Source: Yuukianura sp. NJ FZ-2021 (lineage: Eukaryota). Taken from it: DNA of 64,000 bases. A program made the position numbers and the translations under genes. This document shows positions 15,685-43,800 of the stretch, piece by piece. Below the pieces are notes generated by a model. It was not told the origin of the DNA. It did not search any database and saw only the letters and a program-made list of their open reading frames with translations. The first letter of the stretch is position 1. Each line of letters opens with the position of its first letter. The stretch covers positions 2,976,001-3,040,000 of the forward strand of contig CM102286.1 in the NCBI GenBank assembly GCA_046563655.1, read 5' to 3'.

Positions 15685-18600
15685 ATGGACGGATCTTCTC
15701 CGGAAGCTTTGTCGTCAGGAGAAAGTACAAGTTCTGAACACATTTCTGGCAGCAGAACGAATCGACTCGTTTCACCCGTTCCGCAGATTAGAGTAGGCTA
15801 CGACCACTTGGGACATGGACATGGCCATGTCCAGAACCACGTTTCGTCACCCCCGATCCACCCTTTGACCTCACGTTATGTCAATGCTCTGTCTGCTCTG
15901 GACTATGACACTTCACCCTACAATTGCACACTCCAACTTCAAAATTTACCTCCAATTAAGTACGAGCAAAATGCACATAGAAGTGGCTTTCAAAGAGCAG
16001 AAGTTGGACCTACTGTGCTGAAGAGGTTGGACAACTTTGACGATGCTAACCAACGACTCCCCATTCGTGACGGTAAAAGTTCGCTTTCTCTTGCGCAGGT
16101 AAGATCTCATAAATTGAAGTATATAAAATTAATAATCATTGATTATGAAATAATTACTACCGTAATTACCGAGATATCTCCAGATTTAAACTTGTTAGCT
16201 AAGAGTGCATGAACTAAATCAAAACTAAGAACAAATATCTCCCGGCGTGACTACTTTCTCTTCAGTAAAAAACTAAAAACTGCATTTCAAAATAATTTTG
16301 AAAAGTGGAAGTTGCGCGTGACCTCACGTTGCTTTGAAACCAATTTCAAGCGTTGCTAACATTAGTTAGTGACGTCATATTGTGACAATACGTGCTTGAG
16401 TTGCTTTAAAGTTTAGTTTCAGAAGAATGTAGAGGTCAAAGGTGATGGAATAGGCGTGAGAAGTAAACTTTTGAGAAGCAGTTATTGAGTCTAGTCTTCC
16501 AGACACATTATGATCTGGATAAGACTTGTCATTGTCAGACAGTTCATCGCCCAAACAACGATTAAAGAGTTGAGCAACCCCGATGCATTTAACTTAAATG
16601 TCAGTTCCATTATCATGGATTCAAATGGGGACACGGACACCTTAGTCATAGCATCCTGAAAATAAGTTACAAATTTTAATGCTATTTAATGCTAATGTTA
16701 ACTAAAGTTCCTCTTAACTACAAATTAACTGACGAGGATAACAAAAATTGGTTTGAAAGCATAAAAGGCAGGTGCAAATGATTTTTTGCAATGAAATTTT
16801 GGCGTTCTGCCAAACGATGTTTTGAATGTTTTGGCAACTAAAGTCTGCGTCACGATTAAAAAATTCCAATAAAATTTTGTTAATCGATTAACCCAGATCA
16901 AGTTGCGTTCATATTTCTGTTCCTTATCGTCACTATATGTGTGTTATGATGACGTAACTTGTGAACCTAAGTTTCTTAGAATTTACATTGAATTCAAAAA
17001 TTTAAATTTTGCAACTAAATTTTAACAAGAATTTTTATTGTTGATTTTTAGATTGAGTGCGTGTGTGAGGCAATGCTTCAAAGAAAAGATATAAAACGAC
17101 TTGATGAATTTTTGAAACCAATTTTGCCGCAACTTCAAACTCCATCTGAACCTGTCTACAGAGCTAGAATTCACGTTTTATTTCATGGCCAACACTTCAT
17201 AGAAATGTACAAAGTTATGGAATCTTTTAATTACTCTTCCAGGTAAGATAATTTTTCAAAAATTTTGAAAAAAAAATTTCATTTTCGTTTTTGATTTTTT
17301 GGACTGCATTAGATATCATTCCGAACTACAAAATCTGTGGTACCAAGCCCATTACAAGGAACAAGAAAATATTCGCGGAAGACCGTTAGGCGCAGTTGAC
17401 AAATACCGAATTCGGAATAAATATAATTTGCCAAGATCAATTTGGGATGGAGAGAAAACGACGTACTGTTTTAAAGATCGTGCAAGAGAGGCACTCAAAG
17501 ACTGTTTTGAAAGATGCAAATATCCAACACCGAGTGAGAAAAAAGCACTTTCGGAAATTACTGGATTGACCTCTGTCCAAGTCAGCAACTGGTTCAAAAA
17601 TAAGCGCCAAAGAGAGCGGACGCCACAGCAAAGGTACAGTTTTTTAAATTTTGAAGAAAAAAAAAGTTACTCAAATTAAAGTTTCACAAAAGTTTCAAAG
17701 TTTTCATAAAGTTGTAGTTAAAAATTAAAAAAAAATTGGAGGATAGACATTTTTTTTTTCTGGAACTTTTGTTGACCTTTTGAAAAGCTTTACCACATTT
17801 CACTTTTTTGGAAATGATCGTCGTGGTTAGAAGACGGTGGTCGTCAATTTTGAAGATGACTTATGAGCTGACCATATTTTCACCATGTTCACTTTCCATC
17901 GAGCCGACTTTGGTGTTCTAGTTAGAAGAGGGCCCTTGAAGGGTCCCTTACACTAGTTGTTAAATCACAGTCCAAAGATACAGTTACAAGAAGCCGAAAG
18001 AGGTGATTTTCTTGGGAGTGAGCAACTAACATGAAAAGTGCAACTACTGCGGCACGTCTACGCCGTTTTCTATAAATCCCAAGGGCCCCGACATCGCTGT
18101 TTTCAGTGTACAGGGGGCCCTTAAGGCGACACTGGTACCCTTTGGACTTAACATCTGCATCCCATATAGTTTTCGTGGGTTAAGGGATGAGACAACGATG
18201 TGAGAATGATTAATGGGCCTTCACATCCCGTCCCTTCTCCCTTGATTACCTATTAAGACACTTACGCCCACAAAATAAGTTCGGAGTCTCTGGTTATTCA
18301 ATTCACTTTCTCGGAAATTTTCAAAAAAAAGCAAAACAAAATTTTTGAAGAATTTACATCAATTTTTTATAAGTTTTTGTTTTAAATTTTACAGAGAAGG
18401 AAGTGAATTGGACATTGGCGGTTCCTTTGGATTGCAGCAGTCATGTGGACAAGGAAAAGGAGGAGACGATTCCAGCAATGACCTCAAACCTCTGGTCACT
18501 TTCCGGTCACACAAAAAAATTAAAATGCCCAAGGCGTTCTGCGCAGGTCCTGCAGGATTGAATATGCTTGACCTTGGATTTCCCCTGCCCCTGACCCGTA

Positions 18601-18923: not shown

Positions 18924-19561
18924 AAAGTTATCTTTACTTAACAACTTTTTTTAATGTAAAATCTACAACTTCGTCACAACTTATTTGAAATTGACTTATG
19001 GAATAACCTTTTAGTTTCCATTGAATGAACTTAACTTGTTTTATTGGTTAGTGTTTTGTCCAGACCACAATAAAAACTTGTTTATGGACTTTTGATCAAT
19101 CAATTTTTCATGGAAAACTTTATAGGAAAATAGCTTTTGAGTCTTCCTGACCTTCGCTTGTCATTTTCTACAGGAAGACTTTCATTAACAAAACTGTGAC
19201 TATTGTACATGATTGCGTACATTAGTCGAAGCATTTTTATGGTTTTTGGTAAAACGGTAATAGAAAAAAATAGAATTTTAAACACTTTTGTTATGTAAAT
19301 GACAGGTTTACCTCAAATAATCTTTTAAACAACGTTTGACTTTTGATTCAACAGAAGAAGACGACTCACAAAACAAGTTTTTTGAATTGATAAAGTCTAA
19401 AAATCAAATAACAAATTTCAGGCCTATTTCTAAGAAACTCAAGTCAACAATAGTTTTTGGAAATTTATAAAAGGAACCAATTCCAGGGAGGAGTCTTCAG
19501 TCTAGCCAGAACCACCGACTTTTTTTTCCTGATTGGTCGATTCTCCTGTTCAACAGCAGAA

Positions 19562-20740
19562 ATGGCAACTACTGCTGCTGCTGCTTTCAAATCACCAATT
19601 GCAACTCGAAAATTTGCAGAATTGTACGAATCTAAAAGTCAAACGGATGTTTTGGACAAAGAAACGGATCAACTGTTGGTTCCACTTTTGAAAGAACTCA
19701 AGTACAAATTTCGTGAAAACATCATGGACCATGGATGTGGAACTGGAAGAATTGGACTCAAATATTTTGCACCAGTAGCTGAACAAACGGCATCCAGAAT
19801 TTACGCTGTTGATCATTCAGATGACATGATTGAATACGCTAAAGAACACTATGTTCATCCAAACGTTTCTTACTGGAAAACGGATTTGCTTGATCCCGAT
19901 TTCCCGCTTGGTCACATCCGATTTCACAAGATCTTCTCCATTCATGTCTTTTGCGTTATTGAAAAGTGGCGGTAAGTTTAAAAATGTTAAACAAAACAAT
20001 TTAAAACTAAATTTCAACCATTAATTTTAATTCGTTTTTGTTTGTTCACACAGTGAAACGCTTCAAAAAATGTACGACCTTCTGAGACCCGGTGGAACTC
20101 TGATTGCAATGACAGTTGTGCAGTCCTCGGATTTTTTTCAAGTTCTGGATTACATGAAGAAACATTCAAAATGGGCTTCTACAATTGGACATGTAAGTCA
20201 AAATTAAAATTCTTGGTTACCTAATTTTTTGTTTTCAAAAAATCAAAGTTTGTCCTTACAAATTTTTTAGGCAATTTCAATACCGGAGTGGATTGTTCAT
20301 CTTAAAGATCCAGAAGAAATAGTGGAATTGGCTTTGAAAGAACTTGGATTCAAAGTGAATCACATCTTCACGCATACTCGAACGCACACTTTTAATTCCA
20401 TTGAGGAATGCATTGGTATGAAACTCGTTTTCACTAACAATTCTAAAGCTAATTGTAAGCAATTCAATTTTCGCTTTTTGAGCTCAAACCAAGTTTCTGC
20501 GTAAAAATTTCTTCAATTTTGAGCATAACTGGTTCTTTTTTTGCAGAACTTTACATGGCAGCATATCCAGGTCCTCATGAAAAGCACTTGAGAGACAACG
20601 ATCACAAGTTGGAGTTACACACTGACCTGCGCAATCACGCCATGGAGCTTCGAAAGGACTGTAAACACAACAAAGGCAAGGAAACCCACCAAGTTTTCTA
20701 CGAAACACTCATCTTTTCTGCAGAAAAGCCCCGAGAGTAA
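19562..20740 (+). CDS. Class I SAM-dependent methyltransferase (JHAMT-like family)
   Basis: Exons 19562-19971, 20054-20192, 20271-20415, 20547-20740. Motifs IMDHGCGTG, IYAVDHSDDMIEYA, FHKIFS, MYDLLRPGG. Confidence 0.85.
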
Positions 20741-21351
20741 ACTATGGCTGCATTTCATAGCAATGTATACTTCAAAAATTCCTGATTGCTTGCAATTACT
20801 TCAAAACAGAAGAAAACTGATTAATTTAGATCAAACTTACTTTAGATTAGACGGATTAAGCATTTAGTCTAAGTTTAACCTACTTAAACTGCAATGTAAA
20901 AAAAATAACCCCAATTTATTCTGAAATAAATGCCAAACCATGTGGAACCTTTGCATTATACCCAGTTTTACATAATTTCAATAGAATTGGGTTTGTTGCT
21001 GCTTTCAAATTTTCGTTCCCAATTTATATGGAAATGTCAAGTGTTGCATTCACATATTACGCCCACAGTCATACGCAAGGTCAAAGGTTTAAACAAGTAT
21101 AGATGTTGACATCATTCCGTTATTAGGGGAATCTAATCAACAAAACTTGAAGGATGATGTCATAGGTTATTTCAGCAAGCAAAGCACGACAATCCACATA
21201 TTCCTGTAAATGGAACAAAAATATTAAAGAGAAGGTTCAAGTAACACAAGTGTAGTTCCGTTCTGTGAGTAGGCGATAGTACTTTTGAATCCACTTTCAC
21301 AAGGGACAAAGCGAAAAAATCAAAATTCTAATCAAGACTAAAAAAGTCAAA

Positions 21352-22084
21352 ATGACAAAGTTTTTGGAAGGAATCATTTTGGTGCTTTCTGTGATTGCGC
21401 TTTTCAACGCTGCTGTAAAGTGTTACAATGCTGAACCAATTCTGGACGAAATTCATGGTTACCACTTTCATACGTACTTTTTCCAAACGAATCCAGACAG
21501 CACTGATGAAGCAATCGCCTTCAGGTATTTTAGAAATTTTCAAAATTTCAAAAATGGGAACAATTTTTTTTACATTTCATGTGTATTTGTTAGGGAGCAA
21601 ATCCAGTTACGCATTGACGAAGGCGTTCTGGCAGGATGTCGCCTCAACACATTAAATATGGTCCCGCGAGGTGAAACTTTCAAATCAATTTTCAAATTTT
21701 CGTGAAACTTTAGATACTGTTTAACAAGAGTTATAATTGATTTTAAAAAACTTAAACCTCTGATTTTGTATTATTATAGGTCCGCATCCAATTGGAAGTT
21801 ATGAAACTTGTTGCAACAAAACAGCCATGTCTCCAGCCATTTCCTGGTTTATGCAAAACCGCGGGAATTTGTCCATTCTTCTACATCCACTAACGCGGTG
21901 GGAAGTGGAAGATCACACTACTCGGGCCATGTTCCTTGGACAGTCCTTCAAGCTTGACATTTCTGCTCTAAGGGTTGACCTCGGCGATGATGTTGACATG
22001 TGTGAACCTTTGCCAGAGAGTTCAACATTTCATACGTCTGATGAATCACAACATCATCAGGATACGAACAACATCATAAACTGA
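21352..22084 (+). CDS. DOPA 4,5-dioxygenase family protein (fungal/bacterial type) with N-terminal signal peptide
   Basis: Exons 21352-21524, 21594-21670, 21780-22084 join in frame. Motifs YHFHTYF, GPHPIGSYE, WFMQNRGNLSILLHPLT, EDHTTRAMFLG. Confidence 0.85.
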
Positions 22085-22603
22085 CTCATCATGGTGCAAA
22101 TAGTCACATACTTAATTGTTATGATATTCATAGTTAATTTCAACCAATAACAAGTTCTGGCAGCTAGATATTGAAAGCCTTTTCTTGAAGAAAGGCGGCC
22201 TACTTTGAATTCGATCTCTGTCAACAAAACAATTAGTTCAATACCACAAATCCGCCTAAAACCTAACTTTATGTCTACTGAAATAGTGATGTCAAGTTAA
22301 TATTTCGTGGCAAGGTGAGTCAATTGACAAAAGATTAATGTTCACCTCAATAAGGAAGCGTCTCGCCACAACTAGCTATGATTACATAATTCTGTTCACC
22401 GCCTAACCTCTAATGAAAATCGATTCAAAATAATTTTGTGGTTTCAAAAAACCTGAGATTACTGCATAATCGACAAATTTTAGTTAATTTTCTTCAACCA
22501 CAAAATGATTACCGGCCTACTACAAATAGTCGATGGAAAAACTAGTACGGACAACAGCATCCTCAACCATCAAAATTATTTTGATAAAAAAAATCTCAAA
22601 AAT

Positions 22604-23402
22604 ATGAATCGCTTCACGTTCGTTTTGGCCTTCATCTGCCTCTGCGTCGCAAACGTAAGCACTTACTTGAAAATTATGCAGTTTTTAACTGTTTTTGTCA
22701 ACTTTTTAAATCAAAACTGCAATTCTACTGGTAATATGAAATTGTTTAGGCAAATGGCAGAGCCCTTCAAAAGAGGGGGTTCACTTCCTTTCTTGGTGAG
22801 TTGTGCACTACTCAAGCGTCGTTTTACTCATTTTTAATATTTAGTGATCCTGAGTAATAATATTTGTTAATGCAATTTGTTAAACAGTGAATCCCTTTGC
22901 TGCTGCGTGGGACACCGTGGCACCGGAAAAGTCCAAGCAAACGTGCAGAGCTCTCGGATGGGTAGACAAGTACCCGCAGAAACCAAAGGAGAACGGAGTT
23001 CTGGACTACGTTAGTAAGTCAAAATTTATGAAAATATTAAAACGCTTGGTTTTGTATAACATTTTAGTATTTTCCAATCAACTTATTGTCGAAAATAAAT
23101 GTTTTAATTTCAATTGTATTTTCACATTCCAGTTCCTGACGCTTTGGCAAATGTTTGGGGCGGTGCACATGGAGCCTTGTTTCCGGAAGGAATGCAAGAG
23201 GAGTTTTGTACCTACAACGACATGGTCAGGCCTGGTCAACAAGTACAACCGCAACAACAACCTCAGCAACAGCTTAACGTGGGTGGTTACAATCCGGCAG
23301 CAACCACAACAACAGGTTACACGAACCTCCACCACCATCTACTGTGGCAGGAATTATCCTCCAGATTCACGCTGCCCCCCGCCGTATAATAAGCCACAGT
23401 AG
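22604..23402 (+). CDS. Secreted Gln-rich precursor protein, copy 1 (apparent +1 frameshift in last exon)
   Basis: Exons 22604-22654, 22750-22795, 22888-23013, 23133-end: MNRFTFVLAFICLCVANANGRALQKR-GFTSFLVNPFAAAW... The paralogue-like tail TTIYCGRNYPPDSRCPP lies in a shifted frame after about 23297. Confidence 0.75.
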
Positions 23403-24252
23403 CCAGCATTTATTGTCCTGGATAATAATGCTTTTGCTTTCACTTGAAATAAAATCGGCTCATCTATAAAAAATGGAGCAAAACTAATTGTGCAATTCAC
23501 TCTGCAAACAGTGTAAATACTTTGAATGTGTGTATTTTCATTGTCTTTTGTTTTTCGTGACACTTGAACATTGTAACAATTTGCTGGCAACTCTTGTATC
23601 CGGTGTGCCCACGAAATGTAACCACGGCTCTTTGTATTTTTGTGTCCACTGAGAGTATGTAGTGGGTTGTTACAATCTGGACATTTTTTAATTTTGTTAC
23701 CACAGGGTTGTAACTACTGGGTGGTTAAAGAAAGCTGGGTGGCAGTTACACTGTGTGGGTACAAGGGATTGAGGTTCAGTTCACTCACACAAATAGGACA
23801 AAGTCATCAAAGTTTTCATGTGAATTCCAACATTAGATTTGTTACACAAAGTGTGTTGGTAGTCCTCAAGTTTTGACACGTCGCATTATTGAATTCGAGA
23901 CAAGTCGATCTTGTCAAGTCGCCTAAAGTCTAGCCTTATGCCTACTGAAATAGTGATGTCAAGTTATTTCCTGGCAGGGTGAGTTAATTGACAAATTAAG
24001 ATTAAGTGTCCCCACAATTAGCTATGATTACATAATTATGTTCACCACCGCCTAACGTCTTATGCAAATAGAGTTCAAAATAATTTTGTGGATTCAAAAA
24101 TCTTGAGATTACTGCATAGTTACAGATTTTAGTTAATTTTCTTCAACCACAAAATGATTACCGGCTTACTACAAATAGTCGATGGAAAAACTAGTACGGA
24201 CAACAGCAGCCTCAACCATCAAAATTATTTTCATAAAAAAAATCTCAAAAAT

Positions 24253-25365
24253 ATGAATCGCTTCACGGTCCTTTTGGCTTTCATTTGCCTGTTCGTCGCA
24301 AACGTAAGCACTTACTTGAAAATTATGCAGTTTTTAACTGCTTTTGTCAATTTTTTAAATCAAAACTGGAATTCTACTGGCAATATGAAATTATTTAGGT
24401 AAATGGCAGAGCCGTTCAGAAGAGGGGGTTGGCATCCTATCTTGGTGAGTTTTGTGCACTGCTCAAGCGTCGTTTTGCTCATTTTTAATATTCATTGATC
24501 CTGTAATATTTGTTAATGCTAAACAGCGAGTAAGGAGAACGCAGTGCTGGACAACTCTAGTAAGTCAAAAGTTATGAAAATATTAAAACGCTTCGTTTTG
24601 TATAATATTTTACTATTTTCCATTCAACTCATTGTCGAAAATAAATGTTTTAATTTCAACTGTATTTTCACATTCCAGTTCCTGACGCTTTGGCAATGGT
24701 AAATGTTAGAGCTCTTCAAAAGAGGGGTTTGACATCGTTTATTGGTGAGTTAAACTTATAACTCCAGTTTTGTTTTTACTCAATTAAACAAAAATATTTT
24801 GAAATATTTTACATATTTATTTTCAAATTTGTGTGTTTGTTAATGCTTACCAGTGAATCCCTTTGCTGCTGCATGGGACGCCGTGGCACCCGAAAAATCC
24901 AAGCAAACGTGCAGAGCTCTCGGATGGGTAGACAAGTACCCGCAGAAACCAAAGGAGAACGGAGTTCTGGACTACGTTAGTAAGTCAGAATTTATGAAAA
25001 TATTAAAAAGCCACGCTTAGTTTTGTCCTACTTTATGTTTTTTCTACTAAACTGACGCTAAAGGTTTTTAATTTCAACTGCATTTTCACATTCCAGTTCC
25101 TGACGCTTTGGCAAATGTTTGGGGCGGTGCTCATGGAGCCTTGTTTCCGGAAGGAATGCAAGAAGAGTTTTGTACTTACAACGACATGGTCAGGCCTGGT
25201 CAACAAGTACTGCCGCAACAACAACAACCTCAGCAACAGTTTAACGTGGGTGGCTACTATCCACAACAACAACAACAACCAGGACAGGTTACAACCACCA
25301 CCACCACCATCTACTGTGGCGCTAATTATCCTCCAGATCCACGCTGCCCACCGCGACAAGGCTAA
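24253..25365 (+). CDS. Secreted Gln-rich precursor protein, copy 2 (two extra chimeric exons)
   Basis: Exons 24253-24303, 24399-24444, 24527-24559, 24679-24744, 24854-24979, 25097-25365 all join in frame via GT-AG; ends TTTTTTIYCGANYPPDPRCPPRQG*. Confidence 0.75.
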
Positions 25366-26643
25366 GCTGAAGTCGTCAACAGTATTGTTGTATTTAACAA
25401 CACTGTTTTGGTTTCATTCAAATGAAATAAAAATTGGCTGATCTTCAAAAAATTGAGAACTACTAATTGTGAAAAATTCACTTCCCAAACAGTGTAAATA
25501 CTTTGACCGTGTCTATTCTCGTTGTATTATATTTCTCGTGGCATTTGAACAATATAACATTGTATTGGAACATTCCAACACCGTTGCTCCACAAAATTTT
25601 TTTCGTATTGCTCCAAATTTTAGCATGTCGCATATTATTGAATTCGAGACAAGTCGATGTTAGCAATCAGTGCAATATCACAAATACGAATACAAAATAC
25701 AACCTAGCATGGTTGTGATATTTATACCTGGCTATGTTTGTGCACAAATTTTGCAAATGTGCCATTGCAATTAAGCACACCTTATCCATATGTAACTCAA
25801 GTGGCTTACTGTAAAACGAAATGTAAAACGAATGTGAAAGGAAAGAAAGGAAACAAAAGAAAACAAAAAGTGCACGAACAAAATTCAAGGCTCTTTGAAT
25901 ATAAAGATTTGGAAAAGAACTTAATCACTGTCTACTTCAATATTTTTGAAAAGTTAGAATACTTTTTCCTGCGTTTATGGTTTGAGCTGTTGTGCTTGTT
26001 ATAAGTTCAAAACCTGAATTGCCAATTCAAACTTTTGAACAATCATCAGTAGAAATTTCTCCCAACATTATGACGGTCAATACGACGGCAGACAAAGCGC
26101 ATTCCAAGTCCGACTTTTCCTCAATAAAGATACTATTTTTAGTGGCACTAAAAAATTAAATCTTTAAGAAAAGCAATTGTGAATAGTAATTCATCAATGA
26201 CATACGGTTTTGTGCATCCGGGGCCAGAGGGACTCAAATGACCAATTATTGGCACAGGATCCTAATCATAAAAAGTAAATAAAGGTAGAGTTGCAAGGAT
26301 TGAAATTGAACGCTCATGTCAAAATTTAATTTGCTTTGAATTGAACTGTTTTCGAAATTGAGCACCCCTAAAAATACCCCCTCCCGAGGCAGTTTTTATG
26401 GTGAGAATTTTTTAATAGTTTTCAGTACAATTCAAGAGGAAAATTAAGATCCATTCCCGTAGTGACTCAATGAGGTCAACATGATGGAACTTTACAAACG
26501 ATGACGAGTAGAACGGCACACACTTTTTAAGTTCAATCTGTCATTTGACTTTCAGTTAGACCAAATAAGCAAAGTTTGTCAATAAATGTCAACTCAAGTG
26601 ACTACTGCAAACTTAGTCTGGCTGGTCAGTTGCCACTAAAAAC

Positions 26644-27555: not shown

Positions 27556-27997
27556 TTTGTGCCAAAATTTAATATTAATACTTACTTAGCTTACAATAAA
27601 TTATACTTAAAATTATTTAAATAAATCATACTTTAATAAAAATTTCAAACCATTATTATTGTGTAAGTTGTTAGATGGTGCAGTGCAACCTCTAATATTT
27701 TCGGAACAACTTTTTTAATTTGCGGTTAAGTTTTGCGGTAATTGTTAATTGAGACCAAATTGATTAACTTTCGTTATGTACGGCGTGACTTTAATGAGGC
27801 TTTAAAGATGTCTCAAAAGCTATCTCCATGGTTGGCAAATTCATTTGGTCAGTATCGACGTTTCGTCTGAAATTGGATCACGTAAGCTGTATTTTCAAAT
27901 TGCTTTTACATATTTTGAAATAAACTGTCCATTCTTTGTTTTTTTGGAATTGTCAACTTTTTAAGTTTGAATTTTTAACAATTTTCGATTTCGTAGA

Positions 27998-28444
27998 ATG
28001 GCTACATTGACTGCAGCACAGAAAAAGGAGTTCTCAGAAGCGTTTTTGCTTTTCGACAAAGATGGAGATCACAAAATCAGTTCCAAGGAATTGGGCAGTG
28101 TCATGAAGTCACTGGGCCTCACACCTACAGACAAAGATTTGCTAGACATGATCAACGAAGTAGATGCAAATGCATCTGGAACGATTGAAGAACCAGAATT
28201 TCTGGAACTTATGGCCAAACACGTTGCGGCAACTGACACTGAAGAGGAAATGAAACAAGTTTTCAAAGTATTTGACGTTGGTAATGTCGGATACATTACG
28301 GCTGCAGAACTGCGTCACGTCATGGCCAATCTGGGAGAGAAAATGAGTCCGAGCGAACTCGATGAAATGATTGCTGCTGCAGATACAAGTGGAACGGGCA
28401 GAGTGAGCTACGAAGACTTTGTAACCATGGTAACGACAAAGTAA
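27998..28444 (+). CDS. Calmodulin-like protein (divergent, intronless CDS)
   Basis: 148 aa, four EF-hand repeats collinear with calmodulin ([45 protein letters not shown]). Confidence 0.92.
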
Positions 28445-29155: not shown

Positions 29156-30435
29156 TTAACTTATTTGAGTTGTCGGTACAGGGTGATTGCGGAAAGTAAG
29201 AAGTAAATTAATTGTAGTCATCATAATGACAGTGATGAAAGTGTTTAAACAAAATGCTCTGTCTTGAATTCTAAATAGAGGACCAACGCAAAACGAAACT
29301 TTTTTAAAAGACTTGAGTCTCTTTCGCTGCCATTTAGTTTGTTCTGATTGGATACGCTTTGCGCATGCGTAAAATCGCTCCGAGTTGACTGAAATATTTA
29401 CACAAAGTTGCAGAACAATAAAATTTATCAAAGTAAGGCCAATGTCAACTACAACAAAAATGAGTAAAATGATTGGGTTCATTTTAAATAAAAATTTGAT
29501 GACTGCAAATGAAAGTGAAATGGTAAAGACTAAAATGCCAAAGTAGACCAGAACCATCCAGGAGTATATGAACTCGGAAAAGGCGGCCATGAATACCTGA
29601 ATATGTCGGTACAGCATGAGCAGTTTAGCTCGTTCAAGTCTACTTTCGCCGAACAATTTGTGATGATTTGTCATGCGCTTGAACCAGGTTGAGAGAGCAA
29701 AGAATGTGAAAATGGCTGTCATGAATGCTACTCCACTCCAAAAAATCGTGACGTTGAATACGGTAACGGTAAGAGTAAGTCCGAGCCAAAGACCAATTCT
29801 GTCTATTGGAAATACGGTTGATGCAAATACTTTCAGGAAACGGATTAAGAAAAAGTCCAGAAATGTTGTCAACCACATGCAAAAAGGCTGAAGAACAAAA
29901 AATATTTTCCACTGTAGCACGCCTGCGTCAACTACTTTTTTCATTAACGCATCAGTTTCAGCGGAGGGATTCCCCAGTATCTCTCCTGTAAGTGCGGAAA
30001 GTCTAATGTTTGTTCTAATTTCGATTTTTGTTCAAAATTTTCTGAACACGAATTGTAGTGCACTCAAAAAATAAAATTTCACTTACGTGACCTTTGACCC
30101 AACCGGAAAAGTTCGTCGATGAGCCTAATGTTTCCTTTGATGGTAAGTCCGTACATGTACTGAGAGTGGCCACAGAATACCATCATTTCGAAGAAAGCCA
30201 AATCAAACAAAAAGTAAACAATGTTGTGGGCATCAGCAACTAATTGGAGAAAAAAAAGTAGTAACAGCAAGGAAAAAAATAAGGCGCTGACAACATTTGA
30301 GCACAGAACAGCCTTGTCTTGCGTTGTTACCAACTCCATTACCCAAGTTGACGTGCTCCATGTCAACTTGTAGCTCGATATTTTGAGCTTTTGACCCAGC
30401 TCCAAATACTTGGCGTACTCCTGTAGATACGACAT
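29156..30435 (-). CDS. Multi-pass chemoreceptor-like (GR superfamily) protein, 2 exons
   Basis: Exons 30435-30087 and 29985-29156 join in frame. About 7 hydrophobic helices; C-terminal KRLKSFKKVSFCVGPLF...TTINLLLTF. Confidence 0.65.
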
Positions 30436-31547
30436 TTTCAAAAAGTCAGTTTGTCAAGCTCAAATTTATCCGAGTATAGACTGAAAACTTTTTTTGAACT
30501 AGAAAGCTTATTTAACAAAAATCAATTCCAACGGGTACTGAAGCCTTTATTTTTTTACAGCGGGTTTTAGGGAATAGCTGGTGAATACCTGTTGACAACA
30601 AGTAATGAGTTTTAACTTATTTTACAGAACCAATTTTATTTAGTCAATTTTTTCGTCTTAATTTCATTCTAATTCCTCCCATTTCAAGTTTTTTGAAAAC
30701 TGTTTTTTTTTATTAAAAAGCATTCCTTAGCAATAATTTCAAAATAAGGTAAATTATTAAATGCAAATTTGGACCTTGAACGTTCATAGTTTACCCTGGA
30801 AATGACGTCTTTGCGGTTTCCAATAAAGCAGATTAGTAGAGGTTGTCGCCATGCACGGTGAACAGGTAAAAGTATAATAATAATCGGACCAACTACCACA
30901 ATTAACTAATTGTGGGTACGACAGTTTGACTACGGAAATGATTAACTTTTCACGTGAAGTAAATTTTAAGTTACGTTTTAGTTCTTTATTCACTTTTTTT
31001 CGAATTTGTGCGAGAAAGCTTGCTCGCATCGAATGATGGCTAATCAGCATACCTGCCATAAATATTTAGCTTCCATAGCTGTAATGCTAACAAAATCAAT
31101 ATTTCTGGCCTATTTGTCACTAAATATGTTCTATTTACCCATTCTCTTAATGTTAAACTCGTAAATATTTCGAGCTTTTCAGCAGTTATTGTATTTATTT
31201 ATTTAAATATGTCGCTAGTTTTTAGTAAATATTTTGAAAGGCCTGCTAATTAGTCAAAAAATCATAAATTTCGAAAAGAAAAAGCTGCAATTTCTTTCAC
31301 ATTTTTAGATTTACAATTCTCCAAACGTTTCTACGACGTGAATTGCAATTGACGGGATTTGCATTGTTGGTTACGGTTATGATAGGTACATGCCACTAAT
31401 GCACTTAATTCAATTCAAAAACGCTGATAAAAGTGGTTTCATGCACAGCGGTTGATATTTAAACCATGTTCCAAAAAATACTTTCAAAGTTTTACCTGTT
31501 AGACTTTGCCTCCTTACACAACAGACTTAAGACACACAGGGAAAAAA

Positions 31548-32391
31548 ATGAATTTCTTTTTGCTACTTTCTCTAGTGGCTTGTGTGAGAAGTCAAGTGCA
31601 AACTCAGAGTTACACGGTAAAGGTTTTAATACAAATAAATTGCAGTAATTTGACAATTTAAATTTAATTTTGATAATAATAAAGGCATTTACAATTCGTT
31701 TGTTGTAGATGACCACTAAGGAAATTCAACTTCCAGCACAAGTTCAATATCAACCAGTTACTGTCGTAAGTTTCGAAATGTTCAAAAACTTACGTTTACG
31801 AACTGCATGTTTCAAGCTTATAATCTTTCAAATTTTGTTTAGACACGAACCGTCGAGACTGTACCCTCTGGAACCATCCGGGTCGTGGTTAAGAATTTTG
31901 AGTTTTGAGTTTCACTAAAATTTTAAAAGAAAAGTGCCGTTGAAAAAATTGTGACTTTAAATTCGCAGGTAAATGGACAAGGTCAGCAACAGCAAACGGG
32001 AGGTAATGGTGTCCTGATTGGAACAACTGTGACGGAAAACAACGACGCCAACGCACAACTTGAACTGCAAATCCAACAGGAAAAACAAAGACAACAACAA
32101 CTCGCGCTACAACTTGAGCAGCAAAAGCTGCAACAGGAGCAGCTCCAACTTCAACTGCAAAAGGATCAACTTCAAAATGAACAACTCAAAGAAACAGTTG
32201 CTGCCGACAGTGAACAAGGAAACTGCATTAAGCTTCATGGTCGATGCAACGCAGTTGCTGCCGTCAATATTTTTGCAAAAGATCAATGCTGCAAACCATA
32301 TCACTGCGAATTGTCTCTCTTCGAAGGCATCCTCTGGCCAACTTTTGCATGCACCAACATTGCAACGAAACTAGGAATTGCAGGGCAATAA
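31548..32391 (+). CDS. Secreted Gln-rich protein with C-terminal six-Cys knottin-like domain, paralogue A
   Basis: Exons 31548-31616, 31709-31765, 31843-31887, 31969-32391 (all phase 0). MNFFLLLSLVACVRS signal, Q/L/E coiled coil, then CIKLHGRCNAVAAVNIFAKDQCCKPYHCELSLFEGILWPTFAC. Confidence 0.8.
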
Positions 32392-32815: not shown

Positions 32816-33626
32816 ATGCATTCAATTTGTATTTTGCTCTTGACGGCTTGCGCTGCCACTTCAGCTACCACTACAATTTACACGGTAAAGAAATTTGCAT
32901 AATTTTGTTGGCACAATTAATAACACGTTTTATTCGAAGCGCACCGAGCAATTCACATTGCATGTTTGTTTAACCTTCTTCTAAAGAAGGAATTACAGAA
33001 CTATTTAACGAATTACTTTAAACTTGTTTGTTTTAAATGTTAACAAATTAACATTGGAACAATGATTGTAGACAAAGGAGACGCACACGCACACGGTGCC
33101 TGCTGGCCAAATTCAAGTCACGGTATGTGCTAGGTTATGACTTTAATTCTTTCAATGGACTCTGATTTCTGATAAAAGTTTTTGCCTGATACAGATTGAC
33201 TCTCAAAACAACGGTGGAAACTGGATTGGCGGCACTCAAACGACCATTAATAGCCAGCAACAACAACTTCTCCAACTGCAACTTGAAGCGGAACGACAAA
33301 GACAATTACAATTGGAAAGCCAAAAACAAAATCCCCAACAGAGTCAATTCGAACTGCACCTCCAGAAACAAAACCAAAATAGTAAGTTGACTGGCGGCGG
33401 AAGTGGCGATGGCAATTTCCTCTCTGAAAATCCCGGTAAAGATGAAGATGGTGGCAACTGCATTAAACTACACGGGCGATGCAACGCTGTAGCTGCCGTC
33501 AATGTTTTTGCGAAAGGTCAATGCTGCAAACCATACCACTGCGAATTGTCTCTCTTCGAAGGCATCCTCTGGCCCACTTTTGCATGCACCAACATTGCAA
33601 CCAAATTGGGAATGGCAGGACAGTAA
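32816..33626 (+). CDS. Secreted Gln-rich protein with C-terminal six-Cys knottin-like domain, paralogue B
   Basis: Exons 32816-32884 (MHSICILLLTACAATSA...), 33072-33122, 33195-33626. Cys domain nearly identical to paralogue A. Confidence 0.8.
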
Positions 33627-36076: not shown

Positions 36077-37478
36077 TTACTGTGTTCCCATAAGTACAAA
36101 TGCAATACCGCGTACAATGTTGTCCATTAAGGTCAACTTGGCTTCTGCTTCCATGTGATAAAACCCGCCAATCTGACATTTCAAGACTGGTTGACTCTTC
36201 ACCAATTTACGCATGTATTGGCGTTTCTCGCGTAAGCAGATATGAGTCTCCAAGGCTACTGATGCATTTCGTCGGAAATTTACACTCGTGTTGTACACTG
36301 CGGACATCATAATTGCTCCCGGCGGAACAATGGCCATTACAAAACCAAAGAACAAAATAAATGCCACGTAAAGAAATGGTGAGATTCGATTGCGCAAACG
36401 CACAATACAGTACGCTGCAACGTAAAATGTGGCAAAAGCCCCCAACTTAACTGTTGGAATGAAAACGGAGCCGTAGACGGTGTTGTGCAAGTCCGTCAGT
36501 ACACGCATGATGCTGTAAACCTTTGCATTGTCCTGAAGCTTCAGTCGCTTCTGCGAAGAATGGTTTTGAAAATCCGCGGATGCGCGTGAAAATTTCAACG
36601 GCCACTCCAAACTAAACAAAAATTGCATGTTTAAGTTACAAATATAAGAAATTTTTAAATTATATTAACTTTACATATTCCAAGTATGTACCAGCACTTA
36701 AGCTAGCATTACCAGTGTGCTGTAAGTATGTGCCACATATATACCAACATTACCAGTATAGTGTAAGTATACACCAACGTACATGCCAGCATTATAATGG
36801 TAAGTACACATACCAGCATTTTTTGAGCCAAAATGTTATGACCAATAGGGAAGGAACAAACGTAGCCATGAAAATGATTGTATCATGGCCAAGGTACAAT
36901 ACCGAGAAGACGACGCATGGTCCGTAGACGCTCAGTTCTTTTGCATTCAAAATTTGGAAACTTGGAGCTAAGTTTGCTACCACGTGTGCAAGTGCAGTCG
37001 GTGGCAAAATGGCAATAAAGGCGGCAAAGAAGTGTTCCCGTCCTTTAGTTTTTGGTTTTTCTCCAAACTCGTATTCTCCTTTAAAAAAACGTTTGCTGTC
37101 ATAGCTTTAAAAAAGAATGTATGGCGTTAGCATTGACTTACTCATGAACACGTTGACCTGAAGAAGGTTGTTAACCAGACTAACAAGTTCAGCGGAGTAG
37201 CGAAGCATAGCAATTCGAAATATAATGCCAGTATATCCAGCAAATAGTAGGAATGAGAAGATTATTTGTGTTTGGATTTCGGAATTTTGAATTTGGGTCA
37301 AGAAAAACAAACTGTTTGAAATTTGAATTGCAAATACCAATACATTGCACATCCAAATTTTCATACTTGGTAAAGCCTTTATAACTTTGTTGTCACGATA
37401 TGCAATTGGGCCCAAATTAAAATCACTGACAATTTGAAGAACTTTTTTCAAAATTTTGACCTCCATTGACGACAGCAT
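36077..37478 (-). CDS. Multi-pass chemoreceptor-like (GR superfamily) protein, about 3 exons
   Basis: Hydrophobic ORFs 37478-37107, 37007-36792 and 36628-36077 are bounded by splice sites. C-terminal KLVKSQPVLKCQIGGFY... resembles the 29-30 kb gene. Confidence 0.65.
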
Positions 37479-38253
37479 TATTTAAAGTGTTCGTAACAAA
37501 ATTTTTACTTTTTTTTTATTTTGAAACGCTTGGTGAGGCAATCGAAACTCTTCTAACAAATTTAAAATCATTTCCACTTTCTTTATTCTTAAAAAAAGAA
37601 AAAACATGTTCAAAATATATGCCTTCTTGCATGTTTTTTTTTTCGATTCCACACTTTCTATGTCTAAATTCAAAAATAATTTTCATACCCCCATCTTAAT
37701 TTTGAAATTACAGAAAATTTGGGTGGAAATTTAAACTGGAAGGTAAAAAAAACTACGAATCAAATATTCACGCAATTCATAACAACGGTCACAAACCGCC
37801 AATTTCTTAGTTTGAAAAAAGTGTTGTTTTTTCCAAAACAATTTTGAAATTATGGATATAATAATTCTGAGCTCGGTTTGCGAAACCATTATTTAAACTT
37901 TTTGTAACAAAATTTTAGTTTTTTTTTTAATTTTGAAATGCTTCGTGAGGCAATGTAAACACACCTACAAAATCAAAATCGTCTTCGCCTTATTCTTGTT
38001 TAAGGAGGAAAAAAGAATATTTCTAGTTTTTTTTTTTTAGTTTCCACACTTTCTGTGTCTAAATCCAGAAATAATTTTGATAACCCAACCTTAGTTTTTA
38101 AATTACGGAAAATTTAGGTGGAAAGTAAAACTGGAAGGTGAGAAAGTTCGAATCGAACACTAGTGAAATTCATAATAATGGTCACAAACCGCCAATTTCG
38201 TAATTTGAAAAAAGGTGTTGTTTTTTTCCACAACACTTTTGAAATTTTAGATA
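37476..38253. repeat. Diverged tandem direct repeat (2 copies of about 370-385 bp) immediately upstream of the chemoreceptor-like gene
   Basis: CATTATTTAAA, GTGAGGCAAT, TTCCACACTTTCT..GTCTAAAT, GGTGGAAA...ACTGGAAGGT and GGTCACAAACCGCCAATTTC each recur about 410 bp apart. Confidence 0.85.
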
Positions 38254-38629: not shown

Positions 38630-40079
38630 TTAAGTCCAAGGAAACTCCGGATGTTTGTCAACCCTGAAAGTGAAAGGCAAAAATGCATCACTTGGCACCA
38701 AGTCAGAGTTGTTTGGTTATTAAAAAATTTAGCCAGAGCTTACCCAGAAAATATCTCAGAAAGAATCGCTCTACTCATGTGTGTTTTTGTTGGATCGTCC
38801 AATTTCTGTAGAAGAGTCATATCTTCTGGATCCAAATTAAAAAAGCACGACTAAAAAAAAGTTAAATGTTTCTGTGTTGTTAAATGCCCGACTAAAAATG
38901 TTTGCAAACTCAAGTAAAAGTTATTCTTAAGTTGAAAATTTTCTAGCATACCTTGATGGACGTTTTGATATCATACGGGTTTAGACATTTAGGAATAGCA
39001 ATAATTCCAGATTGAATCAAAAAGCGGAGTACAATTTGTGTCGGCGTCTTGCCGTATTTTCGGCCAATTTCCTGCACGACTGGATCTTTTGTGACTTTGT
39101 GTTGATTGTGCTCCCTAAAATCAAAAATTAAAAGCTAAGCAATAATGCAATGCAATCTAAAAAATGCATCAAATTTTGTTTGTTTTAACTAACTCTGCCG
39201 AAGTGTCCAATTCCGTCATGTCAAGGAGTCCGAGAGGTCCGTAGGCACAAATTGCGATTCCTTTCTTTTTGCAATAGTTTTGAATTTTCTCTTGTTGGAA
39301 GTAAATGTTAATTTCTGTTTGAAGTAACGCTGGTGGAATTGTGGCACAATTTAAAATTCGATCTAGCTGTTCTTCGTTGAAGTCACAAACACCAATGGAC
39401 CGAGTGCGTCCTACTTTCACTTCCTTTTCCATAGCTTTCCAAATTGGTTCGAGATGTGTTTTGTCCAAAAGTACTCGTCCATCGGCATCTCGTGGTAGAG
39501 AAGTGGCATCAGCTGAGGACTGAATTCCTACTGGAAACTGAATGAGGTACAGGTCAATGTACTCCATTTCAAGTGACTTAAGGGCCTCTCGGAGGTATTC
39601 GTTCACACGGTAAGGCCACATAGCCGTTAAGGGTAACTAGGAAAAAATAGTTTTCTGAAATTAATACTTTTTTAATTCATCTTAAATGTTTACAATTTTG
39701 AACGCATTTTAACATTTACTAACCTTTGACACAATAAAGAGTTCTTCTCTCTTGACCTTCCCACTCTGAATCCACGATTTGAGGGCTCTGCCAATTGCTT
39801 TGTCATTGTGTGGCGTTGTGTCAAAATGACGATACCCCGCTGCTAAACCAATTTCCACTGCGGCTTCAATTGTACTAGCATCGTCACTCACCTTTCAATT
39901 TATAAAAGAGCAATTTCGAGTTTTTCAAAAAAATAGAACTTCATAAAATTTGACAAAAAAATATAATTGCAACAATTTGATTTGTATCTGAAACTCACCT
40001 GCCAAGCGCCCAGGCCAAGACCAATCACAGGAATTGAGGCACCGCAAGACAATTGTTGCGTTGGGACATTTCCATCCAT
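38630..40079 (-). CDS. Aldo-keto reductase family protein with altered catalytic tetrad, multi-exon
   Basis: IPVIGLG, GYRHFDT, VKREELFIVSK, SLEMEYIDLYLIQFP, GRTRSIGVCDF, YGKTPTQIVLRFLIQ, terminal HPEFPW*. Confidence 0.9.
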
Positions 40080-40880: not shown

Positions 40881-43800
40881 TTAATCGTCAATTTCGCAAT
40901 CTGAGGCTATCCGAGGAGTATATGAGCCGCTGAATTGTTGATTCCACATTGAGGCATAAACGCCATCTTTGTCCAACAAACCTTCGTGGCTGAAATATTT
41001 AAATAAAAATAATTTGAAACGTAATTGAATGTGAATTGAAATGTATTTGAAGCATCTTTGAATATTTTCTGGTTCTTACGATCCGGATTCAACAACAGAT
41101 CCTTCGTCAAGTACAAAGATTGTATCAACATTGACAATAGTTGACAAGCGATGGGCAATGATAATCGTAGTTCTGTTTTCATAAAGTGATTCCAACGTTC
41201 CCTGAATTTGTTTTTCCGTTTCAGTGTCCAGTGATGAAGTGGCTTCATCCAGAACCATAATTGGTGGATTTCTTAAAATCGCCCGCGCAATTGCGACTCT
41301 TTGTTTTTCACCGCCACTGAGCTTCAGCCCACGATTTCCGACTTCAGTTTCATATTTCTCTGGAAACGAAGTTATGCGATCGTGAAGCGACGCTGCTTTG
41401 GCGGCTTCTTCAATTTCTTCATCCGTGGCGTCCATTTTTGCATACTGAATGTTAGTTCTAACAAAAAATTTTAAGTTTAAAAAAAAATCAGCGAAGTGAG
41501 CTCGGCTTTTCGAAAATTTCGTTTTTAGTTACGACTTACTTGATTGTGTCTGAGAACAAAACGACTTCTTGTGGCACAACGCCAATTGCCTTACGCAAAG
41601 ACAAAGACTTCACTTTTTTGATTGGTTGTCCATTGACCAAAATGTCTCCAGAAGTCGTATCGTAAAACCGAAAGAGAAGTTTGGTCAATGTAGATTTTCC
41701 AGAACCAGATCGACCCACCTAAATTGTGAAATAGAAGTTTGAAATTTTTCAAAATTTTGAATTTTGAAATGATAGACTTACAAAAGCAACAGTGTTTCCC
41801 GCTGGAATGAATATGGTAAGATCTTTTATCACTTCTCGTTCAGGGACATACGAAAACCGGACATTTCTGAACTCAATGGATCCTCCGGTGTTACTAATTT
41901 CCAAATCAGTGGCGTCAGGATCATCAGTCACTTCTGGTTCAAGGTTCAATACGGCTGCAATTTTTTCTACTTCAATGGCATTCTCTTGCAGTCTTCTAAA
42001 AATTTCAAAAAACACGTTTTCATAGTCAGATTTTCAAAATTTGAAATTATAATTTAATTTTACTTGTAAAATTGAATGAACGAGTCCACTGGCCAAAGAA
42101 TCGAAGTAAAAACACTTCTAAAGTAGAGGTAGTCTCCAGCAGTAAGTCCATCTCCACCCAGTACTGACTTGACTACAATCAGAATCACAAGTACTTCTGC
42201 GCCGACGCGAACAAACTCCCGGGCAACTTGAAAAACGTGTGAAAAGACCATTTCAGATATTGCTTTGTCCTTTTCTTCAAAATACGCTTGCTCGTACTTC
42301 TTCTTTTCATATTCTTCGTTTGTAAAGTACTTCATGGTTTCATAATTTTCAAAAGTAGAACTCCGAGAGGTCCTTGTGTTACTTTCTGCTTCTTTCATTT
42401 CTTCCAAAGCTCTATCCTGACGTCGGACAACAAAAAAATCGATCATGCATGACAAAACACCGGTCAAAATGACGACAGACGACAATGAAAAGTTGTAGTA
42501 GCGAAGCATGTAGGCCATTGCTACAAACATATTGATAGTTTCAGGAATTAACCATGATGCAGTACTGATGATGTCTTGTAAAATGTAGGGAGATGAAGTC
42601 ATCATGCTAAAAATTTCGCTGCTTTGGTTTTCCAAGTGCCAGCGGAGACTCAGGTTTTGCAATTTTGAAAACATTGCCAACTGTGTGTCCCAAAATTAAA
42701 TCAAGTTTAACTAACTTGTTGCAAATTTAGTGCTCAATTTTTAAAAAATTCTAAAAAGTTTGTTCTTTTTTGAAAATTTACCTGTAGTTTACTGCAAGAT
42801 TCATTTTGGGTTTGTTCTTCCAAGTAATATTTGACTACCCACAGTATGCTGGAGTCAAAAAATTTCAGTGCATAGAAAATCAAAATAAAATCCCAACGAA
42901 ATTCAAGACGAACGGTGCCAAATTGATTCAGAATTCCTCCGCCAGTGTTAGCATTTGAGCCAGTACTGCTCGTGTTTGAAGAATTTCCAACTTCGAGATT
43001 CAAACTGTCAACTGAAATTGAATTCAGTTACTAAAATTGCGAATTTAAAAACACCATTTTCAAAAAATATAGCAAAAAAATTACCGATTTTCATCGAGTA
43101 CATGTCCTGATAAAAGCTTGTTGCTGATCCAAGCAAAGTTGAAATTAAAAACAATACTCCGCAAACTATGCCTTTTGTAGAAGTGGGCACCAAATATTCA
43201 CGAAGCGGGTAAAATTTTTCGATTGTTGACAAAATTCCTTTTGGTTTTTGCTTTTCTTTCTCCTCGTCTTCATCATTTGCTTTCTCTTTGTTGTTGTCTT
43301 TATCTTTTTCTTTCTTTTCCAAAGGTTTCATCGGTTCGTAAATGAAAACCAGCAGGATGATGAGGCGTAGAATGAAAAATTTCAAATCTCCCGCCCAGTC
43401 TAGGCCCCATAACAGTTCTTGAGTAAATTTTAAAGTCGTGGCGATTAGCAATGTAGCTGGATAAATGTACGTGGAGTAGATGCTTGTAACTTCCTGATTG
43501 AGTGACAACTTGTAGTTGGCCTTGACATAGGTCATCATTCCCGCCAGTGGAATCATGACCATTGAAATCATGACGCCTAAGTGGGAAACGTTCCAACCAC
43601 TTGCAATTTCTTTTAGCCCCAACAGTGCCAAAATGATAAGGCACGACATCTAGCAAAAGCAAAGTGTTTGGTAAAACGTGGTATTTTTAGCCTAGTTCAA
43701 AAAAAAAAAAAAAAATAGCACGAATTTTTGGTTCCAAAAAATTTTACCTTCCGAGTGTACCCAAGTTTCCCTTCTTGTAGCTCATGAGGAGCCAAATGAA

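Follow-up and report, generated by a model that had tools for sequence, protein, structure and literature searches.

The 64,000-nucleotide stretch of Yuukianura sp. NJ FZ-2021 analyzed here (assembly GCA_046563655.1, contig CM102286.1, positions 2,976,001 to 3,040,000 of the forward strand) is referred to below as the window, and all coordinates are counted from its first letter. It contains an intact dioxygenase gene of three exons at 21352-22084 on the plus strand, the product of which belongs to the Pfam family PF08883 (DOPA_dioxygen; DOPA, 3,4-dihydroxyphenylalanine). Judged from comparative sequence data, the gene probably specifies a secreted member of a panarthropod subclade of this family, which would act as an extracellular extradiol catechol dioxygenase and would have resided in animal genomes for a long time. 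From the same comparisons, we infer its activity, metal, substrate, product and tissue.

Gene structure, family and fold

The spliced coding sequence (CDS) of 555 nt runs from the ATG at 21352 to the TGA at 22082-22084 and is translated into 184 residues with 0 internal stops. No in-frame ATG precedes 21352 within the open frame that begins at 21289. All parts of the gene lie on the plus strand. Exon 1 (21352..21524) encodes residues 1-57 and two bases of the codon for R58, comprising the start codon, the leader and the start of the DOPA_dioxygen domain, up to the donor CAG/GTATTT. Intron 1 (21525..21593, 69 nt, GT...AG, phase 2) lies within the Arg codon after F57. Since it is in frame and stop-free, a straight translation of 21352-21669 reads through it. 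Exon 2 (21594..21670), bounded by the acceptor TTGTTAG/GGA and the donor GAG/GTGAAA, encodes residues 58-84 in part, with Cys73 in a CRLN motif. Intron 2 (21671..21779, 109 nt, GT...AG, phase 1) splits the Gly codon of PR-G-PHP, and exon 3 (21780..22084) holds residues 84-184 and the stop, with most of the domain plus a C-terminal tail of ~40 residues. A pyrimidine-rich run precedes the AG of both introns.

Compared with all seven homologues (alignment A1), the read-through of intron 1 forms a 23-residue insertion, and in the alignment with the same number of homologues the joint of exons 2 and 3 restores the conserved PRGPHP. The exon model is thus independently supported by homology. A preliminary description of this DNA, made from the letters alone, had read an intron-bearing animal gene of three exons here, and the GT-AG introns, the open 555-nt CDS and the homologue alignment bear this out. 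Within the window, the gene is present in one copy (tblastn). Retention of intron 1 in a transcript would give a protein with 23 additional residues, and the gene models of two relatives (P0008 and P0006) seem to carry similar inserts.

Exon 3 alone matches PF08883 over profile positions 45-105 of 106, with 63.3 bits and an E value of 2.9e-17, the cut-off being the curated gathering score of 25 bits; such a match goes well beyond chance. Exon 1 matches profile positions 1-23 with residues 37-59 at 15.9 bits, which is under the cut-off when taken alone. In the same Pfam scan, extended to E values of up to 1, no LigB/extradiol class III model matched the window protein, and the sole other match was a weak one to DUF1883 on the intron read-through. 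The family proposed in the preliminary description, DOPA_dioxygen and not the LigB type, is confirmed by this outcome, as is the Pfam profile match by which it had suggested checking the assignment (63.3 bits against a cut-off of 25).

The four histidine motifs named at that stage are all present. YHFHTYF (21460..21480, residues 37-43) contains His38 and His40. The other three, read from the sequence, are GPHP (residues 84-87, across the exon 2/3 joint, with the His86 codon at 21785..21787), LLHPLT (residues 117-122, with the His119 codon at 21884..21886) and EDH (residues 127-129, with the Asp128-His129 codons at 21911..21916). Their conservation was counted in aligned rows of the window's clade (called Cys-type after the cysteines described below), of bacteria and of other family members. 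His38 and His40 are each kept in 23/23 Cys-type and 12/12 bacterial rows. His86 is found in 22/23 Cys-type, 12/12 bacterial and 50/50 other rows, and His119 in 22/23, 12/12 and 48/50, respectively. Asp128 and His129 are invariant in the Cys-type (23/23 each) and bacterial rows (12/12 each) and occur in 49 and 46 of the 50 other rows. The family-wide cluster of H38, H40, H86, H119 and H129 together with D128 is complete in the window protein. The conservation of these five histidines and one aspartate throughout the family argues for retained metal-dependent catalysis.

A profile of six animal homologues matches the PDB entries 2nyh/2p8i at E 1.3e-16 and 2peb at E 1.7e-14. An AlphaFold model was built from a 44-row alignment for the Hypsibius homologue P0004, whose domain shares 67% identity with that of the window protein. 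The model has a mean pLDDT (predicted local distance difference test score) of 88.2 and a pTM (predicted template modeling score) of 0.79; its tail beyond ~residue 150 is of low confidence. In a Foldseek search with this model, 2peb, 2nyh and 2p8i came first, with E values of 1.6e-10 to 1.4e-09, target template modeling (TM) scores of 0.87-0.89 and root-mean-square deviations of 1.5-2.1 Å, and the search returned no structure besides these three under E 0.001. The matched entries, from Burkholderia xenovorans (2NYH/2P8I) and Nostoc punctiforme (2PEB), are titled "putative dioxygenases" and would be structural relatives of the window protein by way of the profile and the P0004 model. They differ from it as bacterial proteins of 115-122 residues without leader, cysteine marks or tail, and their entry titles establish no function.

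Secretory-type marks, relatives and shared introns

The window protein starts with a signal-peptide-like leader (21352..21423, ~residues 1-24), recognized by its hydropathy, with a maximum Kyte-Doolittle mean of 3.06 over 12 residues. Cysteines are found at positions 24, 73, 94, 95 and 158, and N-glycosylation sequons at 96 (NKT) and 113 (NLS). The segment Cys94-Cys95-Asn96-Lys-Thr98 (21809..21823) places a clade-specific cysteine pair directly before a sequon. Cys158 (22001..22003), part of a C-x-P in the C-terminal extension, is the fourth clade-specific cysteine. Cys73 is kept in 22/23 Cys-type rows, the position being occupied elsewhere by V, I or L, while C94, C95 and N96 are each kept in 23/23, with T or S at +2 in 23/23. 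At the cysteine pair and the sequon, W, V/I and P predominate in the remaining eukaryotic rows. The column of Cys158 contains cysteine in 12/12 of the Cys-type rows that reach it and is absent from the bacterial rows. The bacterial rows examined share the His and Asp positions of the window protein but have cysteine at 0 of the four positions.

The same pattern was found in a wider set, consisting of the stored homologue matches and the window protein aligned to the profile, in which 165 proteins fill both columns of the cysteine pair. The pair itself is present in 55 of them. Among these 55, the third cysteine (CRLN) occurs in 47/47 filled columns and the fourth (C-x-P, tail) in 32/32, the sequon Asn in 54/55 and Ser or Thr at +2 in 53/55. 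In the remaining 110 proteins, Pro and Glu predominate at the positions of the sequon Asn and Ser/Thr. A hydrophobic 10-mer upstream of the domain was detected in 19 of the 21 Cys-type proteins with a Met start and an HxH motif, against 25 of 79 other family members, and the two Cys-type exceptions are mite models with short N-termini. The hydrophobic leader, the four further cysteines and the NKT and NLS sequons reported in the preliminary description are all present, and the leader, the cysteines and the sequon after the cysteine pair are kept across the clade. Such conservation suggests that the window protein would be secreted, glycosylated and disulfide-bonded, the four clade-specific cysteines probably forming two disulfides. 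The C-terminal tails vary: those of the Allacma and Bradysia homologues P0005 and P0009 are hydrophobic and resemble glycosylphosphatidylinositol-anchor or membrane signals; that of the window protein is polar and rich in His and Asn.

Relatives were collected with word-indexed searches using exon 3 (E <= 0.001), in which 7/29 candidates among longer proteins and 19/20 among proteins of similar length were accepted. The window's own protein is absent from the collection searched. Over exon 3, the identity to the window protein is 72% for Hypsibius exemplaris, 67% for Allacma fusca, 65% for Orchesella dallaii and 60% for Bradysia coprophila. Exact look-ups added a second Allacma copy, Orchesella cincta and the mites Halotydeus destructor, Dinothrombium tinctorium, Leptotrombidium deliense and Medioppia subpectinata as named members. 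A profile of six full-length animal homologues, compared with 1.84 billion representatives, matched 1041 proteins at E <= 0.001, 273 at E <= 1e-10 and 30 at E <= 1e-30. The next-best named matches are a second Halotydeus copy, a leaderless protein of Paramacrobiotus metropolitanus, and proteins of Diversispora, Cladochytrium tenue, Pyronema, Ceratiomyxa, Paulinella and Riccia. Labeled eukaryotic relatives (P0048, P0049, P0056 and P0039) score 121-161 bits against the animal profile. Bacteria were sampled through 301 genomes of one phylum, that of a gammaproteobacterial metagenome-assembled genome. The family is present in 39 of these 301, and the 25 domains taken from them all (25/25) reach just 36.9-69.1 bits against the animal profile. 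One bacterial candidate from a pattern scan (L001), with 35% identity over 68 residues, was dropped, its genome being without a PF08883 match.

Members may exist in further animal groups. By features, the Atlas cluster nearest to the Hypsibius protein has 176 members, mostly of rotifers (score 0.86), which is a lead only. In addition, PF08883 is listed among the Pfam domains found exclusively among the candidates for horizontal gene transfer (HGT) in the nematodes Xiphinema index and Longidorus elongatus, according to a part of PMC5664137.

For the position of the gene within the family, a careful maximum-likelihood tree was calculated with IQ-TREE from 86 rows and 134 columns. The rows comprise 67 of the 98 rows of an earlier quick tree, 12 of the 25 bacterial domains and seven metagenome loci; the 31 omitted rows were 23 of 57 eukaryote-like and 8 of 23 far-side ones. 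The quick tree of 98 rows had been poorly resolved, with a clade support of 89. In the careful tree, the window falls inside a clade of 24 rows with a support of 99/97, in which all labeled rows (11/11) are panarthropod: a tardigrade, springtails, acariform mites and a sciarid fly. This clade joins a group of 35 rows at 94/94. Here, too, the labeled rows are uniform, 6/6 being eukaryotic (Paulinella, Ceratiomyxa, Paramacrobiotus, Pyronema, Diversispora and Cladochytrium), and the 12 proteobacterial rows (12/12) are on the opposite side of the tree. The nesting in a microbial clade that the preliminary description had named as support for HGT is thus not what the tree gives, the window lying in a panarthropod clade at 99/97 whose nearest labeled outgroups are eukaryotes, not bacteria. 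Within the clade, the window pairs with the metagenome locus L007 (93/96, 71% identity), and both the Allacma and the Orchesella dallaii proteins are included in a weakly supported group of nine rows around it (91/66).

The introns are shared with relatives. They were mapped in nine metagenome loci (L002-L010) from breaks between high-scoring segment pairs and frame-preserving GT/AG pairs. Intron 1 occurs at the identical site and in phase 2 in L002, L003, L004 and L007, with lengths of 68-107 nt, and intron 2 at the identical site and in phase 1 in L006 and L007. Intron 2 is absent from L002-L005, L008 and L009, and no intron was found within the domain of L005, L008 and L009. The alignment of L010 breaks at the site of intron 1, the joint not being resolved. 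Several database proteins of a Bradysia-like group start at this site or carry an in-frame insert there (for example P0008), which suggests that they have intron 1 too. No neighboring genes shared with the window were detected in the flanks of L002-L010 by tblastx and blastn. Synonymous sites have reached saturation between the window and related loci (10/10 pairs), so that no ratio of nonsynonymous (dN) to synonymous divergence is given; dN itself is 0.19-0.32. Together, the introns held in common and the spread of the clade over several arthropod orders plus the tardigrades indicate that the gene has long been resident in animal genomes.

Proposed function and origin

In the proposed mechanism, the protein would enter the secretory pathway, where the leader would be removed and the chain glycosylated and disulfide-bonded, and it would act outside the cell, in the gut lumen, the cuticle or the hemolymph. 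A metal held in the conserved histidine cluster would allow extradiol cleavage, in which O2 is added across a bond adjacent to the hydroxyl pair of a catechol. If L-DOPA were the substrate, the products would be 4,5- and 2,3-seco-DOPA, which would close spontaneously to betalamic acid and muscaflavin. Catechols of other kinds outside the cell would serve just as plausibly, among them phenolics from the diet or from fungi and the catecholamines of the cuticle. The preliminary description had put forward betalain-like pigment, diversion of DOPA from melanization and detoxification of dietary phenolics, which are candidate functions.

Several points weigh against this interpretation or against the history attached to it. 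Relationships within the clade disagree with the species tree: Hypsibius (a tardigrade), Bradysia (a fly) and Dinothrombium (a mite) form a group at 98/92, and distant copies occur in the clade for each of Allacma, Halotydeus and Orchesella. Consequently, hidden paralogy or animal-to-animal transfer is needed under any scenario. With regard to the origin, organism names are attached to just 6 of the 35 sister rows and 11 of the 24 clade rows, a single bacterial phylum was sampled, the alignment has 134 columns, and the node at 94/94 is without a star. The rotifer cluster and the longidorid nematodes imply that the animal range may be wider than Panarthropoda. Concerning the protein, the leader is predicted from hydropathy, disulfide pairing and glycosylation are deduced from conservation, and the fold would be carried over from the P0004 homologue model as a stand-in for the spliced product of the window gene. 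Finally, we know of no member of the Cys-type clade that has been assayed.

As to the origin, a single ancient gain of the gene from a soil eukaryote, fungus-like or other, with subsequent descent and numerous losses, is slightly favored over ancestral retention. Under retention, the gene would be an ancestral animal or opisthokont gene that descended vertically, with many losses and no horizontal transfer, an account that falls clearly short of an even chance. It agrees with the span of the clade across tardigrades, chelicerates and hexapods, and with the nearest labeled outgroups, which are fungi (Diversispora, Cladochytrium and Pyronema), an amoebozoan (Ceratiomyxa) and a Paramacrobiotus protein without the cysteine marks. 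Moreover, forcing all animal rows into one clade, the mark-less Paramacrobiotus included, costs 6.5 log-likelihood units and is not rejected (p = 0.395 in the approximately unbiased (AU) test), although an AU p-value above 0.05 does not establish a clade. The unrejected animal monophyly and the eukaryotic outgroups keep retention a live option. However, very many independent losses would be needed, the sole insect among the named matches being one sciarid fly. The named carriers are all small animals associated with soil, moss or fungi, a bias more typical of transfer, and the branching of the clade is at odds with the species tree under vertical descent. This bias toward soil microfauna, together with the discordant inner branching, gives a slight lean to an old transfer, possibly with later exchange among animals.

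The family includes functionally characterized members. According to a part of PMC9097196, the enzymes AmDODA, GdDODA and AcDODA take part in the formation of muscaflavin and betalains and resemble 2P8I and the Nostoc structure. AmDODA, which is the DodA of Amanita muscaria, and the other two belong to the same Pfam family as the window protein; the comparison is one of family and not of aligned sequences, and in it the window protein adds the hydrophobic leader and the tail of ~40 residues. The three characterized enzymes presumably work intracellularly. The closest counterparts are the automatically annotated proteins of Hypsibius exemplaris, Allacma fusca, Orchesella dallaii, O. cincta, Bradysia coprophila, Halotydeus destructor, Dinothrombium, Leptotrombidium and Medioppia, which share the window's clade (99/97) with the same leader, cysteine pattern and sequon. 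To our knowledge, no assay of these animal homologues has been published.

A tardigrade enzyme also has to be considered. DODA1 of Hypsibius henanensis (Li et al. 2024, Science 386:eadl0799) is cited, in parts of PMC13389832, PMC13263728 and bioRxiv 10.64898/2026.10.27.762089, as a putatively horizontally acquired DOPA dioxygenase connected with betalain synthesis and radiotolerance. Its likeness to the window protein, as an animal DOPA dioxygenase, is taken from the description in these citing papers only. Li et al. are said to have assigned the tardigrade DODA1 a bacterial origin in 2024. If DODA1 belongs to the Cys-type clade, this origin would not fit the tree obtained here.

DODA1 provides the main alternative to extracellular catechol cleavage, namely a role in pigment or antioxidant formation. 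More generally, the fold could have been kept for another role, either the binding or conversion of something other than a catechol or, as for the tardigrade DODA1, the formation of a betalain-type antioxidant pigment in a secretory organelle, which we consider unlikely on balance. In agreement with such a change, the clade has Cys at position 94, where W is common (35 of 50 other rows), and neighboring residues have changed as well, which could alter the pocket. The citations of DODA1, as far as the citing papers describe it, likewise tie an animal DOPA dioxygenase to betalains and radiotolerance. Against a different role, all five family-wide histidines and the aspartate have been kept.

Two other enzyme types resemble the proposed activity without being related to the gene. 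The LigB-type enzymes, such as the plant DODA, YgiD of E. coli and BmDODA1 of Bombyx mori, perform the same overall reaction on L-DOPA but form an unrelated family. BmDODA1 is a horizontally transferred insect gene, according to a title in the reference list of PMC9097196, and that paper lists its His175 together with His175 of Beta vulgaris and with His177 of both E. coli and Portulaca. On the basis of this conserved His175 numbering, BmDODA1 appears to be of the LigB type and is thus apparently no relative of the window gene. A "horizontally acquired gene" of Samia ricini was also set aside, as it is a kynureninase and not a DODA. The best functional analogue for an extracellular role is the DOG enzymes of spider mites, which a part of PMC9167512 describes as secreted intradiol catechol dioxygenases from fungi, encoded by 17 genes, expressed in the gut and detoxifying plant catechols. 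They differ in their intradiol cleavage and in belonging to another protein family with no sequence relation, as well as in number, 17 genes compared with one copy in the window.

The family name is not new for these animals. NCBI and UniProt records already carry the name "DOPA 4,5-dioxygenase" for homologues from Orchesella, Allacma, Halotydeus and Hypsibius. A literature search for a PF08883-type enzyme in springtails, mites, rotifers and tardigrades returned only the nematode HGT list and the DODA1 citations, the phrase form searched being one that may miss the printed comma form. The preliminary description had regarded the gene as a candidate for an undescribed system. At the sequence level this does not hold, the homologues being auto-annotated, the nematode PF08883 listed and the tardigrade DODA1 cited, and taken alone the window gene adds a further member to a family whose name annotation pipelines already use. 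The clade-level picture, in which a secreted panarthropod branch is marked by cysteines and shared introns, was not met in the literature searched and appears to be unpublished.

We tentatively propose, at somewhat less than an even chance, a wider picture in which an undescribed extradiol enzyme that cleaves catechols outside the cell is common to springtails, acariform mites, tardigrades and some flies. This disulfide-bonded and glycosylated offshoot of the DodA family would go back to an ancient acquisition from a fungus-like eukaryote of the soil and would since have been handed down, perhaps also exchanged, among soil microfauna, and it would either make pigments or antioxidants of the betalain or muscaflavin type outside cells or destroy dietary and fungal catechols in the gut. 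If true, arthropods would have a second ring-cleavage system for detoxification or pigmentation beside the intradiol DOGs of spider mites. DOPA and related catechols feed arthropod melanization and cuticle hardening, of which extracellular ring opening would be an unrecognized branch. Such an enzyme could further supply animals with betalain-like pigments or antioxidants, which have so far been reported for one tardigrade only. With one origin, shared introns, a patchy range in soil microfauna and eukaryotic nearest relatives, the clade offers a testable case of a microbial-type enzyme refitted for the animal secretory pathway, and it bears on the claim of a bacterial source for the tardigrade gene.

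The remaining explanations concern the presence of the gene in this particular genome. A recent transfer from a bacterium or fungus, private to this lineage and followed by domestication, would be in line with the mainly microbial nature of the family, found in 39 of the 301 sampled genomes of one bacterial phylum, with its fungal and bacterial characterized members (a part of PMC9097196) and with the scoring of PF08883 as an HGT candidate in nematodes (a part of PMC5664137). The closest relatives, with 60-72% identity, are nevertheless proteins of other animals, in a 24-row clade (99/97) whose 11 labeled rows are all panarthropod. The leader, the four cysteines and the sequon are common to this clade, both introns have the sites and phases of those of relatives, the base composition equals that of the flanks, and against the animal profile the bacterial domains stay below 70 bits. 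The membership in an animal clade and the shared introns thus largely refute a recent or private transfer, which we regard as very improbable. The preliminary description had proposed a domesticated horizontal transfer or a patchily retained gene. Its first option falls in the form of a transfer private to this genome, and patchy retention stands as a live one. A contaminant or assembly artefact, with microbial DNA joined to an animal contig, has only the microbial flavor of the family in its favor and can be practically dismissed, being refuted by the spliceosomal GT-AG introns that interrupt the frame and by the flanks, with a SIX homeobox exon 3.7 kb upstream, animal genes on both sides, an even base composition and a contig from another study's DNA run that covers the gene and its flanks.

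Genomic setting and neighboring genes

The proportion of guanine and cytosine (GC) is ~0.36 and level over the dioxygenase gene and its flanks. The independent contig, 1812 nt long and from a DNA run (X3) of a different study, covers 20970-22566 and then jumps to 24217, with 61 differing letters over its two pieces (37 + 24). It extends beyond the gene by 380 nt upstream and 480 nt downstream, which means that the locus exists in an independent sample. Upstream of the dioxygenase gene, an exon encoding SIX1_SD and a homeodomain (17269-17679, at the distance of 3.7 kb mentioned above) and a methyltransferase (19454-19975) were identified. Downstream, the window encodes an EF-hand protein (27971-28444), an aldo-keto reductase (39169-39636) and an ABC transporter (41076-42695).

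Directly downstream of the dioxygenase gene lies another gene (22604-25441, plus strand) with a signal-peptide-like start at ~22604. Two of its open reading frames (ORFs), 22884-23402 and 25007-25441, share a long near-identical stretch, which makes this a tandem duplication; ORF 22884-23402 had no Pfam match. The X3 contig skips 22566-24217, as though it had one duplicate fewer.

A second tandem pair on the plus strand (ORFs 31927-32391 and 33147-33626) combines Gln-rich repeats with a nearly identical Cys-rich C-terminus. Its six cysteines are spaced C-C-CC-C-C, as is typical of inhibitor-cystine-knot peptides, and the two ORFs may encode secreted knottin-like peptides. Only ORF 33147-33626 of the pair was scanned, and it had no Pfam match.

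The Rfam and tRNA scans of the window gave no match, and a protein search with an exon of the ABC transporter yielded none at E <= 1e-10. Long ORFs at 1-1528, 29156-30453 and 36077-37481 (minus strand) contain many hydrophobic segments, like multi-pass, gustatory-receptor-like chemoreceptors; the two chemoreceptor-like ORFs scanned (1-948 and 29156-30031) had no Pfam match. An intron-less ORF of 504 residues at 46892-48406 (plus strand), also without a Pfam match, has arthropod "hypothetical" and ionotropic-receptor clusters as its nearest Atlas clusters (score 0.96) and is likely a divergent ionotropic receptor.

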